Shown: positions 873 to 18,641 of the stretch, piece by piece
How the letters are laid out: each line of letters starts with the position of its first letter
Numbering within the stretch: position 1 is the stretch's first letter
From: Escherichia coli
GTDB taxonomy: Bacteria; Pseudomonadota; Gammaproteobacteria; Enterobacterales; Enterobacteriaceae
Assembly (NCBI RefSeq): GCF_041248615.1
Contig: NZ_CP158426.1
Reading direction: 5' to 3' (one strand)
DNA: 64,000 nucleotides
Translations under genes and position numbers: made by a program
The notes under the pieces: generated by a model
Databases searched by the model: none
What the model was told of the DNA's origin: nothing
The model's input: the letters and a program-made list of their open reading frames with translations, nothing else

Positions 873-1802
873 TTAGAGAACGCTGAATAAATTCAACTCA
901 CTCACTTTCGAGTAAGTCTTGAGGGTAGCTTCCATTGCTACTTCCAGTCCGGTAAAGGTGATCGACGCCGGGCCGTAATCGAGATCCTGTAATGAACCAA
1001 TCAACTCATCATTAGAAGTAGAGATATCGGTCTGCGCATCGCTCAGCATCGACATGGTGTTCTGCGTCTCGCCGAGCGACGCAATCGAGGCGTTGAGGTC
1101 GTCCGAGGCGGTGTCCACCACGTTAACTGCGTTCTGAATATCGCTCTGCACCTGCGGATCGGCCGGGTCAACGTTTGGGTCTTGCAACTCCTGCGACAGG
1201 GTATTCAGTGTGTTGAGCACATCTAAATTGCTGCCGAAGAAATCGCTCGCCGCCACGTTGGTATCCACTTCCACGCCGTTCGACACCGTGGTCTGGCGGT
1301 GGTCGCTGTTGCCCTGATAGCTGTAGCTGTCGGTCACGCCATCGCCGTCATCGTCCACCGCCACAATCGGCGGCTGATCGTTGATGGTACCGCCAAACAC
1401 GTAATGCCCGTCTTCGTCCTGATAGTTCAGCGCCGCGACCATTGATTCGGTGAGCGACTCAATATCCTGCCCGAGACTTGCGAGCGAATCGGCGGTATTG
1501 GTACCATTCGCCGCTTCCAGCAGGTCGTCGCGCACCGCCAGCAGGCTGTTGTTGACGCCATCAAGAATTGATTCCTGCTGACTTAACCCCGCCGACGCGG
1601 AGTCGATATTGCTCTGATACTGCTCAATCGCCGACTGTTGGCGGTTCAACTGGGTGATGCGCGTGGCGGCGATCGGGTCATCCGACGGCTGCAAAATCTG
1701 CTTGCCGGTTGCCATCTGCTCGACCACATGCGCCAGATCGCCGGAGAGATTATTAAAACTTTGCGTCATCGAGACGTAGGTTTGTTGGGTGGTTACTCGC
1801 AT
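873..1802 (-). CDS. lfgL: Flagellar hook-filament junction protein FlgL-like (hook-associated protein 3)
   Basis: N-terminus MRVTTQQTY..PSDDPIAA matches FlgL/flagellin N-domain pattern; start moved to ATG at 1802 (GGGAG 9 nt upstream), ORF-track start 1826 would overlap flgK. Confidence 0.85.
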   Translation of the reverse strand: MRVTTQQTYVSMTQSFNNLSGDLAHVVEQMATGKQILQPSDDPIAATRITQLNRQQSAIEQYQSNIDSASAGLSQQESILDGVNNSLLAVRDDLLEAANGTNTADSLASLGQDIESLTESMVAALNYQDEDGHYVFGGTINDQPPIVAVDDDGDGVTDSYSYQGNSDHRQTTVSNGVEVDTNVAASDFFGSNLDVLNTLNTLSQELQDPNVDPADPQVQSDIQNAVNVVDTASDDLNASIASLGETQNTMSMLSDAQTDISTSNDELIGSLQDLDYGPASITFTGLEVAMEATLKTYSKVSELNLFSVL

Positions 1803-1816
1803 TTTCGCGCTCCCGC

Positions 1817-3193
1817 TTAGCTGCACATTTCCAGCACCGAATCGAAAATCTCGGCCCCGGCGGAAATGACTTTCAGATTGGCTTCATAAATTTGTTGATA
1901 GGTGATCAGGTTAACCGCCTCTTCGTCCATGCTGACGCCGCTGACGCTGCTCTGCTGGTTTTGCGCTGCGGAATAGACATTGGACGCGGCATCGACTTCC
2001 GTCTGGTTTTGCTGGCTGTAAATGCCGATATTGCTGATGATTGACGAGCACGCCTGCCCGACCGTCACGCTGCCGAGGTTGGCTATTTCCAGCGGTTCGG
2101 TGGAGATATTGATCAGCGCCTGGAGGTTGTCGCTGTTGCCGCTTTCGTCCGGCGAACTGGAGAACGCCAGCTCATCGGCGGTGATATCCGGGTTAACGGT
2201 CAGCGGGCCATCGGCGTTGCTGGCGTCATAAATAAACAGCGGCTCGCCGGGGTTACCGTTGAGATCGTAGCCCTGCGCCAGCTGGTTGTTAACCGCATCG
2301 GCGAACTGCGACGCCATACTGTTGATGGTGTCGGTCAGCGGCGTCAGCACGTCGTTTTGATAATCAAACAGTGCGCCTAATGAACCGCCGGTGTCGGTAG
2401 TCATCGTCGAGGTGGTGCCAGCGAAAGTCAGCGACATGGTCGGCGTGCCGTCGGCGTTGGTTTCCAGCGCGATGGTCGAGCTTTGCTGCCCGCTCACCAG
2501 CGGTTGACCGTTTTTCAGGGTAACGTTGTAGTTGCCCTGGTCGTCGATATTGACCTGCACATCCATCATCCCGCTGAGTTCTTCCACCATCTGGTCGCGG
2601 GCGTCGTACAGCGCGGAGGCGTTATCGCCGTTGGCTTCGGCCTGAGCGATTTGCTGGTTATAGCTGGCGATGCCGCTGGTGAGCGTGTTGATTTGCGACA
2701 CCATCGCCTGCTGCTGGCTGATGATTTCCGTGCTTTGCGAGTCGATGTAATCCAGCGTGTTGTCGATACGCAGCGACAGCGCCCCGGCTTCGCTGATCAC
2801 CTGCTCGCGCAGGGCGGAATCATCAGGGCTGGTGGTCGCTTCGTTAAGGGCGGCGAAGAAGTTATCGAACCCGCCGCTCAGGCTGCTGTTATCGTCGCTC
2901 AGTACCGCTTCCAGTTGCGTGAGATACCCCTGCTGGGTGCTGTAATAGCCGTAATCGCTGGCGGCATACCACACCTGATTCACCTGATACTGGTTAGAGA
3001 CGCGGCGAATGCTGTCGACCTGCACGCCGTTACCGGCGCTGTTTGGCGAACCGCCGCTGGCACCGATGGTGCTGATCTCCGCCACCTGACGGGTGTAGCC
3101 CGTGGTCATGGCGTTGGCGGTGTTTTGCGCCGTGACGTTCAGCTCCACCTGCGCGGTTGATGCCCCGCTGTAGCCGATGTTAATCATGTCCAT
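1817..3193 (-). CDS. lfgK: Flagellar hook-associated protein 1 FlgK-like
   Basis: 458 aa; conserved FlgK N-terminus (NTANAMTTGYTRQ) and C-terminus (SGVSMDEEAVNLITYQQIYEANLKVI). Confidence 0.9.
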   Translation of the reverse strand: MDMINIGYSGASTAQVELNVTAQNTANAMTTGYTRQVAEISTIGASGGSPNSAGNGVQVDSIRRVSNQYQVNQVWYAASDYGYYSTQQGYLTQLEAVLSDDNSSLSGGFDNFFAALNEATTSPDDSALREQVISEAGALSLRIDNTLDYIDSQSTEIISQQQAMVSQINTLTSGIASYNQQIAQAEANGDNASALYDARDQMVEELSGMMDVQVNIDDQGNYNVTLKNGQPLVSGQQSSTIALETNADGTPTMSLTFAGTTSTMTTDTGGSLGALFDYQNDVLTPLTDTINSMASQFADAVNNQLAQGYDLNGNPGEPLFIYDASNADGPLTVNPDITADELAFSSSPDESGNSDNLQALINISTEPLEIANLGSVTVGQACSSIISNIGIYSQQNQTEVDAASNVYSAAQNQQSSVSGVSMDEEAVNLITYQQIYEANLKVISAGAEIFDSVLEMCS

Positions 3194-10914: not shown

Positions 10915-12339
10915 ATGTCTGAATTTGAATTGCTCGTGAAAGATCTTCTTTTAAAATCAGAAGAAGACGAGAAAAAGCGACAAGAAAAAGATCGAGAATT
11001 AATTTCAAAGGTTCTTGAAATCTATGATCAAAAATATGTTGCAGAACTCCTACGAAAAGTAGGAAAAAATGAATGGAGCAGAGAAACACTTAACCGTTGG
11101 ATAAATGGTAAGTGTAACCCTAAACAATTAACTTCTGCTGAGGAAACTTTACTTCGAAAGATGCTCCCAGAACCTCCCGAACATCATCCTAACTATACAT
11201 TTCGTTTTATTGATTTATTCGCAGGGATTGGTGGTATTCGTAAAGGCTTCGAAAATATTGGTGGGCAGTGTGTTTTTACTAGCGAATGGAATAAAGAAGC
11301 GGTAAGAACCTACAAAGCTAATTGGTTTAATGATGAACTAAATCATAAATTTAATCTTGATATACGAGAAGTCACTTTAAGTGATAGAGATGATGTTTCC
11401 GAAATGGAAGCCTATAATCATATAGACAAAAATATTCCAGATCATGATGTCCTTCTGGCCGGTTTTCCATGTCAACCCTTTAGTCTGGCTGGGGTAAGCA
11501 AGAAAAATTCTCTGGGGCGTGCACATGGTTTTGAATGTGAGGCACAAGGAACACTATTTTTTGATGTCGCTCGAATTATTAAATCAAAAAAACCAGCTAT
11601 TTTTGTGCTTGAGAATGTGAAGAACCTTAAAAGTCATGATAAAGGTAAGACTTTTAAAGTCATCATGGAAACACTCAATGAATTAGGGTATGAAGTCGCC
11701 GATGCTGGTGTGACTGGCTCAGATGATCCTAAAATTATAGATGGAAAACATTTTTTACCCCAACATCGTGAGCGTATAGTGTTGGTAGGATTTCGTAGGG
11801 ATCTAAATATTCACAAGGATTTCACGTTACGAAATATTAACCGCTTTTACCCTCAAAACAGGCCAACATTTGGTGAATTATTAGATCATGATGTTGACGA
11901 CAAATATATTTTGACTCCAAGGTTATGGGAATATCTTTACAATTATGCAAAAAAACATGCAGCAAAAGGAAATGGATTTGGTTTTGGTTTAGTGGATCCT
12001 AAAAATCCAGATAGTATCGCACGAACGCTGTCTGCTCGTTACCATAAAGATGGCTCTGAAATACTGATCGATCGTGGCTGGGATAAGGCTGTCGGTGAAA
12101 TCGATTTTAGTAATCCAGCGAATCAAGAGAATCGACCAAGAAGACTGACACCTCATGAATGTGCCAGGTTAATGGGTTTTGAAAAACCAGGGGGAAGACC
12201 TTTTAGAATACCTGTATCAGATACTCAAGCTTATAGACAATTTGGGAACTCAGTTGTTGTGCCAGTATTTGAAGCTGTAGCAAGATTACTAGAACCGTAC
12301 ATACAAAAGGCTGTCAGCATGCAAGTTATTAACGATTAA
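10915..12339 (+). CDS. DNA cytosine-5 methyltransferase, Dcm/M.EcoRII family (predicted CCWGG specificity)
   Basis: 474 aa; motif I FAGIGG, motif IV PCQPFS, ENV, QFGNSV; near-collinear with M.EcoRII/Dcm as recalled; gene is AT-rich unlike flanks. Confidence 0.9.
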
Positions 12340-12362
12340 TAATAATTAACTTTCACTATTGT

Positions 12363-12386
12363 GAGGCCTTTTTTATTAAAGGCCTC
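12363..12386. terminator. Hairpin between convergent methyltransferase and endonuclease genes (candidate bidirectional terminator)
   Basis: gaggccttt-tttatt-aaaggcctc perfect 9-bp stem in AT-rich context. Confidence 0.4.
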
Positions 12387-12426
12387 TAAATATATAATCA
12401 TAAGTTATTATAAGTATACTTTTATA

Positions 12427-13632
12427 TTATACAAAATCTTCATACAGCGTTATTAACTGTGTGATAAAACCCTCTAACGTTAATAATCCCTCCCTGATTT
12501 CCTCCGGATATTTTTTATGAAGAGGGGAAGGTACAACCAAGGTGACACCTTCAGCTCTCATTTCGTTAAATTGAGCAACTGAGACACCCTCTTGTAAGGT
12601 AAACAAATATATTTTGTTGATTTTATTTGCTTCATTGAGTGCCTGACGCCACCGATCCTTACATGTTGTTTTTACAGCAAGCATACGGAGTTTTTCTCTT
12701 GGAAAGTGATCATCATGGTAAGCTGCCGCTGATGGAAAAAGAAAATCGGGTTTCTTTTTTCCTTCAGTAATACATTGAGTAGCAAAATGATGCAGTCCAT
12801 GCTCAATAAAAATTTGCTCAAGATGTAGCTCCAGTGATTTCCCGGCTCGAGATTTTCTTCGATTACTAACAGAGTTAGCCATAGCTATAAAATCATCTAC
12901 AGAACCAAACCCTTGACGGATGATGTCCAGTACGTGAATTTCTTCAACCATTAGAAAGAGATCATATTCAATACGGCGGCGTTCTAAAAGTTGGTCATCT
13001 GGACTGGTTACGCCTGTTGGGTAATAACCCGCAGCATATTGAATAATCTCTAAGCCAGAAGGAAAGCTATGTTTCCAGCTTTCCGGAATAACATATTCCT
13101 TTTGAGAGATTTTTGGCCTTGATGCGAGTACACCAAGTATTTCACTGGCAGGCCCAAACATTAAAGTTCCAGGAATGATCTCCCCAATAGCTGATTCCAG
13201 TACATCCTCTTCTTCTGGGCTAACACAAACCCATACATCAACACTTTTGCTGTCTCTCCCTGGCTCATGTTCAAACGCAAGCACAGACAAAGCACCTGTA
13301 TTTTCCGGATCCTGTAGGGGACTGCCAGCCCCCCACCGAGTGATGCGTTTTTCATTTCTTGTTTGCCCGAAATACTTATTATTGTAGTAAATAGCGCGAA
13401 CCTCACTGTCTACACATTCATGAGAGGAATAAGTTGCGCGCAATAAAACCGAAGGATTTTTTTCTGACGTATGATCTATAGATGGGAAAAGTTCAGCGAC
13501 GATACCAGAAGGGATATATACCCCCACTTGATGCCCTCCTGTTGCACCAGTGTCGTTTGCTGAAAGACGTTTAATATAGAGATAGTTGTTACCACCGACC
13601 TTATCAAGCAGCCAATCTTGTAATCCTGACAT
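12427..13632 (-). CDS. Type II restriction endonuclease, EcoRII-like
   Basis: 401 aa; N-terminal YIKRLSANDTGATGGHQVGVYIPSGI and overall layout match EcoRII as recalled; convergent with the MTase; AT-rich. Confidence 0.75.
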   Translation of the reverse strand: MSGLQDWLLDKVGGNNYLYIKRLSANDTGATGGHQVGVYIPSGIVAELFPSIDHTSEKNPSVLLRATYSSHECVDSEVRAIYYNNKYFGQTRNEKRITRWGAGSPLQDPENTGALSVLAFEHEPGRDSKSVDVWVCVSPEEEDVLESAIGEIIPGTLMFGPASEILGVLASRPKISQKEYVIPESWKHSFPSGLEIIQYAAGYYPTGVTSPDDQLLERRRIEYDLFLMVEEIHVLDIIRQGFGSVDDFIAMANSVSNRRKSRAGKSLELHLEQIFIEHGLHHFATQCITEGKKKPDFLFPSAAAYHDDHFPREKLRMLAVKTTCKDRWRQALNEANKINKIYLFTLQEGVSVAQFNEMRAEGVTLVVPSPLHKKYPEEIREGLLTLEGFITQLITLYEDFV

Positions 13633-15626: not shown

Positions 15627-18092
15627 ATGCAAACCCTCATCAAAACACTCGCCACCCAGCGCGAAAAACCGTTCGTCAGCGTCGTCACGCCCACATGGAA
15701 CCGTAGCGCATTCCTGCCGTACCTGCTCTATATGTACCGCTATCAGGACTACCCGGCAGACCGCCGCGAACTGGTCATCCTCGACGACTCGCCGCAAAGC
15801 CATCAGCACATCATCGACCGTTTGACCGATGGCACGCCGGAAGCCTTTAACATCCGCTACATCCATCATCAGGAAAGACTGCCGCTGGGCAAAAAACGCA
15901 ACATGCTCAATGAACTGGCAGTGGGGGAATATATCCTCTGCATGGATGACGACGACTACTACCCGGCAGATAAAATCTCTTACACCATCGCCATAATGCA
16001 AAAACACCGGGCGCTCATCTCCGGTTCCGACCAGATCCCCATCTGGTACAGCCACATCAATCGCATCTTCCAAAGCCGCAGCTTTGGCTCACATAACATC
16101 CTCAACGGCACCTTTTGCTATCACCGTAACTACCTGAAAAAGCACCGTTACGACGATGATTGTAATTTAGGCGAAGAGAAAAGTTTCACCAACAATTTCA
16201 GCGTTAACCCGCTACAACTGCCCGGCGAGCGCACGATTTTGTGTATCTCGCATAGCCACAACACCTTTGATAAAGACTTTATTCTCGGGGCCAGCACGCC
16301 AGTAAACGCGGCGCTTACGGATATCGTCCGCGATCCGCTGCTCCGCAACGCCTATCTGAGTCTGCATAACGCCACTCATCACCAGGCGATCAACCATCAG
16401 GCGATCGATCAGGTCGTACTGATCAATCTGGATAAACGCCCGGATCGCTTACAACAGATCCGTGAAGAACTGGCATTGCTGCATATTCCACCTGAGAAGA
16501 TCACCCGCCTTGCCGCCAGTGAAGATCAAAACGGCCAACGGGGACGACGCCAGTCGCACTTGCAGGCGCTGCGCCTGGCGCAACAGCACGGCTGGCAAAA
16601 CTACCTGCTGCTGGAAGATGACGCGGTTATTCTCAAGCAGGAAAAACATATTCAGGTACTGAACACGCTGCTGGCGAGCCTGGCGAAAATTCCCTGGCAG
16701 GTGATGATCCTTGGCGGCGAAATTTCGCAGGGAACGATGCTAAAAAGTTTGCCGGGGCTGGTGCACGCGCGGGACTGCCGCAAGGTGTGCGCTTATCTGG
16801 TGAACAGCCGCTACTACCCGCAACTGGCGCAGCAGATGAGCAACGATGAGCACTCGCTGGAAGAGTGCTGGCAGCCGCTGCTACACGCCGACAAATGGCT
16901 GGCCTGTTACCCGAGCCTTTGTTACCAGCGACCGGGCTTTAGTGATATCGAGAAAAAAACGACTGACAACATTGCTCACTATTTCAATAAGTTACCCGTA
17001 GCCACCAAGCCATCTACATTACCCATCGCCGATACCATCGGCTTTTTTATGGAAACCTCATTCCACTACGCGCTCTACCGCCCAATCATCACCGCTCTGC
17101 AGGCGCAGGGGCAGAGCTGTACGCTGGTGATCAATGACCGCGTATTTAAACCATTTCTGGATGAAATGCTGGCGACGCTAAAAAGCATTGACGATCCGCA
17201 GCTCAAAGGTATGCGCTTATCTGAAATGCAGGCGCACGGTCAGCGGGTAAAATGCCTGGTCAGCCCCTATCACACGCCCGCGCTCAGTGGCCTGGCAGCG
17301 GTGAACGTCCGCGCCATGTACGGCTTAGCCAAAGAGGCGTGGAACCACGCCGACTGGAATCGTTTTTACCAACGCATTTTGTGTTATAGCCACTACAGCC
17401 AGCAGACACTGGCGCATTTCGGTAGCGCAAAAGTGGTCGGCAATCCACGTTTCGACGCCTGGCATAACGGCACGTTTGCCCGCACTCTGCCGGAAAATAT
17501 TCAACCCGATTCCCGTAAACCTACGGTGCTCTACGCCCCCACGTTTGGCGCATTAAGCTCCCTGCCCCACTGGGCAGAAAAATTGGGGCGCTTAAGCGGT
17601 GATGTGAACCTGATTTGCAAACTGCACCACGGCACCTGCTCGCGCCCGGAAGAAGCTGCATCGCTGGCACTGGCGCGCAGGCATTTAAAACAGCGCACCG
17701 ACTCCGCCCGCCACACGCTGGCGCTACTGGCAAAGGCCGATTACGTGCTGACCGATAACAGCGGCTTTATTTTCGATGCTATCCACGTTGATAAGCGGGT
17801 GATCCTGCTCGACTTTCCGGGCATGAGTGAATTACTCGAAGGCGAGAAAAGCTACTCCACGCCGGAGAGCGCCGATCAGCAAATCCGCGAAATATTGCCG
17901 GTGGCTCATGATATGGCAGAGTTGCGTTACTTGTTGTCAGAGGCGTTTGACTGGGGGGCGGTGCAGGCGCGGCTTACGAAGATTCGTCATCACTATTGCG
18001 ATGCGTTTATGGATGGCAAGGCGGGAGAACGGGCGGCGATGGTGATTGTGGAGGCGCTGGCGGACAAGGAATCGTCAGGGATATGTCGATAA
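15627..18092 (+). CDS. Multidomain glycosyltransferase: N-terminal GT2-like, central GT25-like, C-terminal CDP-glycerol glycerophosphotransferase (TagB/TagF)-like
   Basis: 821 aa; GT2-type start (VSVVTPTWNRSAF..DD..DDDD), GT25-like VLINLDKRPDRL, TagF-like VLYAPTFG and LHHGT motifs. Confidence 0.75.
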   Translation: MQTLIKTLATQREKPFVSVVTPTWNRSAFLPYLLYMYRYQDYPADRRELVILDDSPQSHQHIIDRLTDGTPEAFNIRYIHHQERLPLGKKRNMLNELAVGEYILCMDDDDYYPADKISYTIAIMQKHRALISGSDQIPIWYSHINRIFQSRSFGSHNILNGTFCYHRNYLKKHRYDDDCNLGEEKSFTNNFSVNPLQLPGERTILCISHSHNTFDKDFILGASTPVNAALTDIVRDPLLRNAYLSLHNATHHQAINHQAIDQVVLINLDKRPDRLQQIREELALLHIPPEKITRLAASEDQNGQRGRRQSHLQALRLAQQHGWQNYLLLEDDAVILKQEKHIQVLNTLLASLAKIPWQVMILGGEISQGTMLKSLPGLVHARDCRKVCAYLVNSRYYPQLAQQMSNDEHSLEECWQPLLHADKWLACYPSLCYQRPGFSDIEKKTTDNIAHYFNKLPVATKPSTLPIADTIGFFMETSFHYALYRPIITALQAQGQSCTLVINDRVFKPFLDEMLATLKSIDDPQLKGMRLSEMQAHGQRVKCLVSPYHTPALSGLAAVNVRAMYGLAKEAWNHADWNRFYQRILCYSHYSQQTLAHFGSAKVVGNPRFDAWHNGTFARTLPENIQPDSRKPTVLYAPTFGALSSLPHWAEKLGRLSGDVNLICKLHHGTCSRPEEAASLALARRHLKQRTDSARHTLALLAKADYVLTDNSGFIFDAIHVDKRVILLDFPGMSELLEGEKSYSTPESADQQIREILPVAHDMAELRYLLSEAFDWGAVQARLTKIRHHYCDAFMDGKAGERAAMVIVEALADKESSGICR

Positions 18093-18184
18093 AATTCGAT
18101 TTTTTAAACATGTCGTTGGAATACGTTTATGCCATCGACATGTTTTAGGGATATGTCGAAAAAACGCGATTATTTAAACATATT
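18078..18184. repeat. Imperfect direct repeat pair (~38 bp) with internal hairpin at a convergent gene junction
   Basis: gggatatgtcga(t/a)aaaa..cgatt.tttaaacat twice; inverted arms aaacatgtcg / cgacatgttt. Confidence 0.3.
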
Positions 18185-18236
18185 TAACATAGCCAAACGG
18201 CAGACGGCATCATCTTCTCTCACTACGGGAATTAAA

Positions 18237-18641
18237 TCAGTAGGTGGCTGATTTACCCCTAATCACCTCAATAATCCCCGTCGTCGATACCGACGGCGTA
18301 CGGGGAAAATAGACCACCTCACAGACACACGAGAAATCGTCAAACTTCCCTGCCCAGTCATCACCCATCACTAAAATATCCGCACCGTACCCCCGCAAAT
18401 ACTCCGCTTTCTGCTCCAGCGATTCCTCCAGAAATACGCCATCCACGCACGCCAGCCCGGCGATAATCGCCATGCGGTCATCCTGATGGTAAACCGGTGC
18501 CCTGCCCTTTTTGGCGATGTTCAGGGCGTCGGACGATACGCCGACCAGCAGCCGCTCGCCCAGCTTGCGGGCGCGTTGTAAAAGGCGCAGATGACCGACG
18601 TGAAACACATCGAAGGTGCCGAAGGTGATGACCGTTTTCAT
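18237..18641 (-). CDS. Glycerol-3-phosphate cytidylyltransferase (TagD-like)
   Basis: MKTVITFGTFDVFHVGHLRLL (HxGH), DDWAG, EVVYFPRTPSVSTT, near-collinear with TagD as recalled; start set to ATG 18641 (GGAG upstream, abuts fliJ stop). Confidence 0.8.
   Translation of the reverse strand: MKTVITFGTFDVFHVGHLRLLQRARKLGERLLVGVSSDALNIAKKGRAPVYHQDDRMAIIAGLACVDGVFLEESLEQKAEYLRGYGADILVMGDDWAGKFDDFSCVCEVVYFPRTPSVSTTGIIEVIRGKSATY

Follow-up and report, generated by a model that had tools for sequence, protein, structure and literature searches.

A probable relic of a SoFic control region in the Flag-2 locus of Escherichia coli, and a candidate operator pattern upstream of SoFic genes

Repeats between the convergent glycosyltransferase and tagD-like genes

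We analyzed a 64-kb stretch of Escherichia coli DNA (contig NZ_CP158426.1; hereafter the window, to whose internal positions the coordinates below refer unless another locus is named). It represents the Flag-2 (lateral flagella) locus, with 100% identity to the corresponding DNA of strain NRZ14408. Between lfiJ and lfgN of this locus lies variable region 1 (VR1), described in the literature as a hotspot of cargo genes, among them those for glycosyltransferases and TagD (PMC6993521). Here the open reading frame (ORF) of a glycosyltransferase and a tagD-like gene converge on a gap of 144 bp, counted from the stop codon of the former (18090-18092) to that of the latter (18237-18239). The gap contains two direct repeats and a hairpin, which are probably the orphaned control region, presumably an operator for autorepression, of a deleted gene for the Fic protein SoFic, and most likely inert now.

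A repeat search recovered the paired direct repeats and the inverted pair that a first-pass annotation had noted at this junction. The former measure 35 nt with 89% identity (18077-18111 and 18147-18181) and are spaced by 70 bp, while the latter has 18-nt arms that are 89% complementary (18106-18123 and 18128-18145). The degenerate consensus written for the direct repeats in that annotation has exactly 2 matches in the window, against 0.00 expected from 100 shuffles. What it had overlooked is that the first copy begins within the last four codons of the glycosyltransferase and provides its stop codon (GTCGATAA). The two copies correspond to 33-bp quasi-palindromes, termed P1a and P1b, both of which conform to ATATGT-N21-ACATRT, and between them lies a 23-bp short palindrome, P2', whose left hexamer is degenerate in the window, reading ATACGT and not AYRTGT. 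The more general pattern AYRTGT-N21-ACAYRT is likewise found exactly twice in the window, namely at the two repeats, where 0.03 matches would be expected.

Remnants of a SoFic cassette

When the gap was used as a 177-bp query in a sensitive BLAST search of 5,426 complete E. coli genomes, 107 of them displayed the same arrangement as the window, and the weaker matches (75-86%) always lay directly 5' of a 1,077-bp fic gene. The product of this gene is a SoFic orthologue, as indicated by the NCBIfam equivalog NF046030 (590 bits), the PADLOC SoFic model (E = 4e-121), the Pfam domains Fic_N, Fic and SoFic-like_C, the last being a winged helix-turn-helix (wHTH), and matches to the PDB entries 9vjc and 3eqx. 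SoFic is thus a Fic AMPylase with a wHTH domain; this one gene by itself provides an abortive-infection defence, and its expression is toxic (PMC12249575). The motif RQTAS in the wHTH (R320/T322) is nearly invariant among the 32 listed homologues that are considered below.

Strain UCPROB-002 has an intact fic at the identical junction, between the glycosyltransferase and the tagD-like gene. An intact SoFic gene is also found at exactly this Flag-2 junction in a further, widespread second allele of E. coli and in E. albertii, indicating that the insertion is old. The full cassette insertion was counted in 9 genomes by BLAST with the whole intact cassette, a search that was swamped by matches to repetitive extragenic palindromic (REP) sequences. 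In other strains fic resides in a genomic island or an integrative and conjugative element (ICE), and related genes are found on plasmids of Pantoea, Cedecea and Salmonella.

In a global pairwise alignment, window positions 18079-18184 correspond to -173 to -68 relative to the ATG of the UCPROB-002 fic gene, with 91/106 positions identical. Homology to the DNA 5' of intact SoFic genes was also recovered with a hidden Markov model (HMM) built from three independent arrays (those of the ICE, the Pantoea plasmid and the Cedecea plasmid), whose sole match in the window spans 18079-18182 (E = 1.7e-20). P1a is homologous to the first P1 of these arrays and matches 24/24 of the P1 columns that are at least 90% conserved, whereas P1b is homologous to the second P1 and matches 23/24. 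From there on the window lacks 1011 bp of the intact allele, which hold the final P2' and the promoter predicted within it, the final P1, the start codon, and codons 1 to about 315. What follows is a first coding remnant of fic (remnant A), from which a further missing segment of 74 bp separates a second one (remnant B), so that 59 bp of the 3' end of fic, or about 19 codons, are left. Remnant B overlaps the stop codon of the tagD-like gene by 7 bp, as it does in all intact alleles. Since these coding fragments survive in their original order, the direction of change must have been deletion rather than insertion. In keeping with this layout, the window has no full-length SoFic with Fic_N, Fic and SoFic-like_C as recognized by the NF046030 and PADLOC models, all of which were detected in the intact allele (locus L003), and its sites no longer have a cognate gene with promoter and start codon beside them, these parts having been deleted.

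The left boundary carries a further trace of loss. In intact alleles the glycosyltransferase has 812 amino acids (aa), ends in ..EALG* and is followed by a REP-containing spacer, whereas its last 10 or so codons in the window (..ADKESSGICR*, from about 18061) form a new tail. A deletion of about 220 bp that removed this spacer fused the ORF to the operator relic, resulting in 821 aa instead of 812. We accordingly propose the following history: an ancestor of this lineage would have carried SoFic in VR1 of Flag-2, between the glycosyltransferase and the tagD-like gene, and three deletions, of about 220 bp, 1011 bp and 74 bp, would have eliminated the spacer, the promoter-proximal 1.5 repeat units and nearly the whole ORF. 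What remains in the window is P1-P2'-P1 and the 59 bp of the fic 3' end.

Architecture of the intact array

The array upstream of intact fic occupies exactly -171 to +2 (173 bp) in four unrelated contexts, including the ICE and the plasmids of Pantoea and Cedecea, and the DNA upstream of -171 is unrelated from one context to the next. It consists of three 33-bp P1 elements alternating with two 23-bp P2' elements, all separated by 7-bp gaps, which gives a period of 70 bp (33 + 7 + 23 + 7). The consensus of P1 is the quasi-palindrome ATATGTCGATAAAA-N5-TTTTTTTAAACATAT and that of P2' is ACATGTTTATGGCATCGACATAT. The reverse complement of the latter, ATATGTCGAT-GCC-ATAAACATGT, reveals both half-sites of P1 with a spacer that is 10 bp, or one helical turn, shorter. 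The last P1 overlaps the start codon (ACAT-ATG), and a sigma-70-like promoter scoring 10/12 (GTGACA-17-TATGAT or TATTAT) lies within the last P2' of intact arrays.

In the locus typical of strains 55989, ST131 and O104:H4 the array is expanded to about nine copies of P1. The expanded array of E. coli 55989 fills the whole 630-bp gap from a gene for an HTH regulator to fic, and this allele is present at 99% identity or more in 233 complete genomes, including those of ST131 and O104:H4. Its 140-bp higher-order repeats share 96% identity and point to a recent amplification. The HTH regulator gene in front of this array has another tandem repeat upstream, which is unrelated to the array, consists of three units of 59-60 bp and contains the palindrome ACCTATTGAT..ATTGATAGGT. 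We also noted that many short-read contigs with this fic gene (protein clusters P0020-P0120) are about 2,074-2,080 bp long; the recurrence of this length suggests that assemblies routinely break in the upstream array, and the SoFic array is probably under-represented in draft genomes.

A binding pattern shared across phyla and a model for autorepression

The conservation of the pattern was studied in 32 listed distant SoFic homologues of 36-57% identity from Gamma-, Beta- and Alphaproteobacteria, Bacteroidota, Actinomycetota, Clostridia, Poribacteria, Kiritimatiellae and Chlamydiota, a set with no enterobacterial and no complete Shewanella locus (locus L039 is partial). The pattern AYRTGT-N21-ACAYRT occurs within 220 bp upstream of the gene in 11/32 of these, and 3 more have it with N22, whereas shuffled controls averaged 0.01 per spacer and never exceeded 1. 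No other spacing of these hexamers is enriched in the 32 loci except N11, which is found in 2 of them and corresponds to the short form of the site; the long form, with inverted half-sites at a fixed distance, is that of both repeats in the window. A comparable picture emerged for inverted repeats with 10-nt arms upstream of the start codon, among which a spacer of 13 is present in 12/32 listed loci against 0.54 in shuffles. In the Poribacteria locus a 23-bp and a 33-bp site lie side by side. The features conserved in these comparisons are the sequence of the half-sites and their exact spacing, including at positions that are not complementary (CGAT versus TTAA), whereas base pairing is not conserved. 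This argues for recognition by a protein and against a role for base pairing.

Dimeric, and not monomeric, SoFic of Shewanella oneidensis specifically binds the 100-bp segment that precedes the start codon of its gene (bioRxiv 10.64898/2026.07.09.737422). We took the sequence of the bound fragment F1 from Table S2 of that preprint and found that it contains a P1, TTATGTCGATAAAAGAAGGTTTTTTTAAAC directly followed by the ATG, and a 23-bp P2', ACATGTCGATTGAATCGACATAA; further 32-33-bp sites are present upstream of these in the S. oneidensis DNA. The arrangement in F1 resembles the enterobacterial one in that P1 (TTATGTCGATAAAA-N-TTTTTTTAAAC) abuts the start codon, is accompanied by P2' and belongs to a region bound by the dimer. 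It differs from the window in that the gene is intact, and the preprint defined the binding to 100 bp, without a motif or repeat architecture.

The closest functional parallel is CccR of Yersinia pseudotuberculosis, a proven autorepressor that acts on a 10-N26-10 inverted repeat (PMC9755527). CccR, too, is a dimeric Fic protein with a C-terminal wHTH; it represses its own gene, as we propose for SoFic, and its inverted repeat has an unusually long spacer and overlaps the -35/-10 region (PMC9755527). In contrast to the single CccR site, AGATAATCAT-N26-ATGATAATCT, SoFic has the half-site ATATGTYKAW in two spacer classes (10-N13-10 and 10-N3-10), and five sites in an array of 70-bp period, which some E. 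coli have expanded to about nine long sites; the window, for its part, has lost the gene. By analogy with these systems, dimeric SoFic at intact loci would bind widely spaced ATATGTYKAW half-sites via its two C-terminal wHTH domains, and the five sites between -171 and +2 would cover both the promoter (last P2') and the start codon (last P1), which we propose keeps the toxic gene tightly shut. Going by sequence comparison, the intact array is most likely an operator for autorepression; in this the step from homology with a SoFic-bound region to an operator that represses fic is our inference. This operator architecture spanning phyla has apparently not been described so far.

Copies of the module in phages

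In viral contigs a 14-mer scan produced mostly single matches of the kind expected by chance, from which a combination of HMM search and geometry check separated the real modules, while the strict P1 pattern had no match in these contigs. Two viral contigs were picked in this way, one of them being the Klebsiella phage vB_KpnM_BIS47 (Vequintavirinae). A module of P1 + 7 bp + P2' (33+7+23) is present in BIS47, Escherichia phage 4MG, Cronobacter phage GAP31 and Salmonella phage SalP219, and also in a GC-rich phage contig. It lies within a large non-coding stretch, of which it is the sole alignable part in some of the phages. No SoFic homologue was detectable in any Vequintavirinae genome by tblastn (E <= 0.01); the module can thus persist without a fic gene next to it. 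Judging by its sequence, the phage module may serve as a decoy, as a trigger or as a site for another protein, or may be a relic.

A broader view, which we regard as improbable, is that P1+7+P2' constitutes a free-standing DNA signal for SoFic and not merely an operator at its promoter. If the SoFic wHTH does bind such sites in trans, the phage copies could be decoys that sequester the toxin or switch it off, an anti-defence function, or alternatively a cue by which the SoFic defence senses infection; chromosomal orphans such as the relic described here could in that case buffer SoFic activity. In this context, DNA-induced (de)AMPylation has reportedly been observed for a Fic enzyme of Coxiella.

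Alternative explanations and the present state of the relic

The first-pass annotation had suggested that the repeats could be a bidirectional terminator or a small repeat element. For the former, the hairpin does lie between convergent stop codons, and RNA folding predicted a stable structure for each strand (-18.9 kcal/mol, z = -4.7 on the + strand; about -16, z = -3.5 on the - strand), while the P1 copies taken singly fold no better than shuffles (z = -0.8 and -0.4). Moreover, its strength is allele-specific, with 16/18 positions paired in the relic against 6-13/18 in the homologous segments of intact arrays, and sequence changes after the loss of the gene may therefore have strengthened it. 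The hairpin also shares with Rho-independent bidirectional terminators its stability and its position in a short convergent gap, but it lacks what defines them: a consensus scan for terminators had no match in the gap, the stem is AU-rich with internal mismatches and not G+C-rich, no 5' A-tract or U-tract flanks it, the 3-4 U that follow are mostly paired to the 5' AAA, and the T6 run on the + strand is on the wrong side, preceding the stem. Since the half-sites that make up the hairpin come from the SoFic array, no terminator function has to be invoked to account for it. We hold it unlikely that it acts as a bidirectional intrinsic terminator of the convergent genes, be it incidental or co-opted after the loss of fic, although folding leaves room for weak incidental termination, which may occur there. 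Of the idea of a small repeat element, the existence of a real repeat family stands, but this family is a tandem array tied to a gene, 5' of fic, and is neither dispersed nor mobile. Palindromic repeats do abound in the intergenic DNA of E. coli, and BLAST found a median of 7 places per genome, as might befit an inserted element of the kind of REP or bacterial interspersed mosaic elements (BIMEs), enterobacterial repetitive intergenic consensus (ERIC) sequences or miniature inverted-repeat transposable elements (MITEs). Yet these 7 places proved to be different registers of one and the same tandem array, that upstream of fic, a number explained by the expansion to about nine P1 copies, and the suggested search elsewhere in the genome uncovered one locus per genome, with one place only in the listed relic-bearing genomes and no other copy in the window, instead of the many copies per genome typical of such families. 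Homologous copies all lie immediately 5' of a SoFic gene, and we found neither terminal inverted repeats, target duplications nor an Rfam family. REP/BIME and ERIC elements resemble the SoFic element as short, imperfect intergenic palindromes, and genuine REPs adjoin the array in the intact allele, but these are unrelated to it in sequence, and the SoFic element, at its one locus per genome, is attached to SoFic. An insertion of a dispersed or mobile repeat at the junction is accordingly extremely unlikely.

Tandem repeats just 5' of an abortive-infection toxin gene are also the hallmark of type III toxin-antitoxin (TA) systems, and the expansion of the array to about nine units would suit an element acting as RNA, either a ToxI-like repeat RNA that neutralizes the toxin or a structured 5' leader, of which the window would then hold two dead repeats. 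In ToxI/ToxN, though, a processed repeat RNA meets an endoRNase toxin, the promoter lies upstream of the repeats and a terminator precedes the toxin gene, whereas SoFic is an AMPylase and not an endoRNase of the ToxN/AbiQ type, no terminator separates the repeats from fic, and the best promoter is located within the last unit, which would leave most of the array out of the fic transcript. The P1 units, as noted, have no particular fold, and the hairpin between units is not conserved; Rfam scans of the gap and the intact arrays returned only sub-threshold matches to plant-miRNA-type hairpins and the REP-derived naRNA4, and no RNA family. Conversely, the conservation of half-sites and exact spacing from E. 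coli to Actinomycetota, Clostridia and Poribacteria, and the direct binding of the corresponding DNA by S. oneidensis SoFic, indicate recognition of DNA by protein, making an RNA-level element very unlikely. A reading as iterons or a replication origin was dropped, given the lack of a rep gene and the palindromic nature of the sites, which are not direct 17-22-mers. A last alternative is that the orphan module still is a working DNA site that binds SoFic made elsewhere or another protein. The intact half-sites, the low diversity of the relic and the conservation of the 33+7+23-bp module in virulent phages without a detectable SoFic gene speak for it. We nevertheless rate it as unlikely, because the relic is the sole copy of the array in each of the 11 listed relic-bearing genomes, which therefore probably have no SoFic of the enterobacterial type, because the dead remnant of fic is just as poor in substitutions, and because the left hexamer of P2' has degenerated.

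Several observations weigh against an inert operator relic and deserve to be set out together. The two P1 sites have not decayed (24/24 and 23/24 conserved columns), and among six relic alleles (the loci L093-L097 and the window) the operator part varies at only 7/107 columns, compared with 14-16% in the flanking coding DNA; such low variability could signify retained function. None of the intact arrays compared has a hairpin as strong as that of the relic. The same module is present in virulent phages that have no detectable SoFic gene, only 14/32 of the listed distant loci have the strict motif, and the support from S. oneidensis consists of qualitative size-exclusion co-elution, reported in a preprint and resolved to a 100-bp fragment only. 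Concerning variability, the comparison covered 18078-18236 for the relic and 17660-18077 and 18237-18636 for the flanks, where third codon positions of the genes vary at about 29%; variable columns are about half as frequent in the relic as in these flanking genes. In the same alleles the dead fic remnant has 3 substitution columns in 52 and one 7-bp deletion. As a remnant without coding function is equally poor in substitutions, we read the low diversity as the mark of a young or recombining haplotype and not of selection, which suggests a younger coalescence or the recombinational spread of the deletion haplotype. With no promoter, no gene and no second array, the relic of the SoFic control region is most likely inert, and its repeats would now do nothing beyond supplying the glycosyltransferase stop codon and filling the gap.

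Neighboring genes and other cargo

The features of the locus and of related loci are collected in Table 1. The tagD-like gene is the conserved right-hand neighbor of the SoFic cassette in VR1, and in intact Flag-2 SoFic alleles another tagD-like copy lies upstream of the array, partial in E. coli and full in E. albertii. The SoFic cassette is therefore bracketed by direct tagD-like copies, which may be a trace of its insertion or a substrate for its deletion. At one intact locus (L098) a GAD-like/T6SS_Tdi1_C protein and an unknown 236-aa ORF adjoin SoFic. Other E. coli have alternative cargo at the glycosyltransferase/tagD-like junction, in the form of sets of 2-3 small ORFs (loci L007 and L008) for which no significant Pfam or PADLOC match was obtained, the one match to DUF4347 being below the Pfam gathering cut-off. 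The window itself has a type II restriction-modification pair, a DNA cytosine methyltransferase and a restriction endonuclease, between flgA and flgM of Flag-2, which represents further defence cargo within the flagellar cluster.

Table 1. Positions of the features in the window, at related bacterial loci and in phages
Feature	Sequence	Position	Strand	Remarks
Glycosyltransferase ORF of Flag-2 VR1	window	15627-18092	+	821 aa; stop TAA 18090-18092 inside P1a
P1a	window	18081-18113		first direct-repeat copy; 33-bp quasi-palindrome ATATGTCGATAAAATTCGATTTTTTAAACATGT; ATATGT-N21-ACATGT
Hairpin inverted repeat	window	18106-18145		40 nt, AAACATGTCG...CGACATGTTT; from right half-site of P1a through P2'
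P2'	window	18121-18143		23-bp short palindrome ATACGTTTATGCCATCGACATGT; P1 half-sites in inverted order, spacer 10 bp shorter
P1b	window	18151-18183		second direct-repeat copy; 33-bp quasi-palindrome ATATGTCGAAAAAACGCGATTATTTAAACATAT
fic coding remnant A	window	18185-18222	+	codons ~316-327 (NIAKRQTASS.., wHTH helix); 36/38 identical to intact allele
fic coding remnant B	window	18223-18243	+	last codons (..RELNQ), stop TAG 18241-18243
tagD-like adenylyl/cytidylyltransferase gene (CTP_transf_like)	window	18237-18641	-	
Type II restriction-modification pair	window	about 10915-13632		
Upstream tagD-like copies, E. coli	L098-L101	about 2005-2290		
tagD-like copies	L102	1794-2195 and 3571-3975		
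GAD-like/T6SS_Tdi1_C protein and 236-aa ORF	L098	528-1985		
Alternative cargo at the junction	L007	3116-5504		
Alternative cargo at the junction	L008	3166-4519		
Expanded SoFic array, E. coli 55989	L002	1018-1606		
Second tandem repeat, E. coli 55989	L002	204-379		
Phage module, BIS47	L141	1567-1629		KY652726.1 about 102319-102381
Phage module	L202	897-959		
Phage module	L225	about 1597-1658		
Phage module	L226	about 1577-1691		
Phage module	L227	about 1501-1562		

Conclusions

For the genome in question the outcome is mundane: the repeats mark a lost defence gene in the known cargo hotspot of VR1, and the annotation should read SoFic pseudogene or relic rather than terminator or repeat element. 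The relic nevertheless leads to a candidate code for the SoFic operator at base resolution, with the half-site AYRTGTMKAN and fixed site lengths of 33 bp and 23 bp. In Enterobacterales the candidate sites form an array of 70-bp period, and the candidate pattern is conserved from Proteobacteria to Actinomycetota, Clostridia, Bacteroidota, Poribacteria and Chlamydiota. This motif opens the autoregulation of SoFic to direct testing, and its phage-borne copies provide a concrete lead on the interplay between phages and SoFic.

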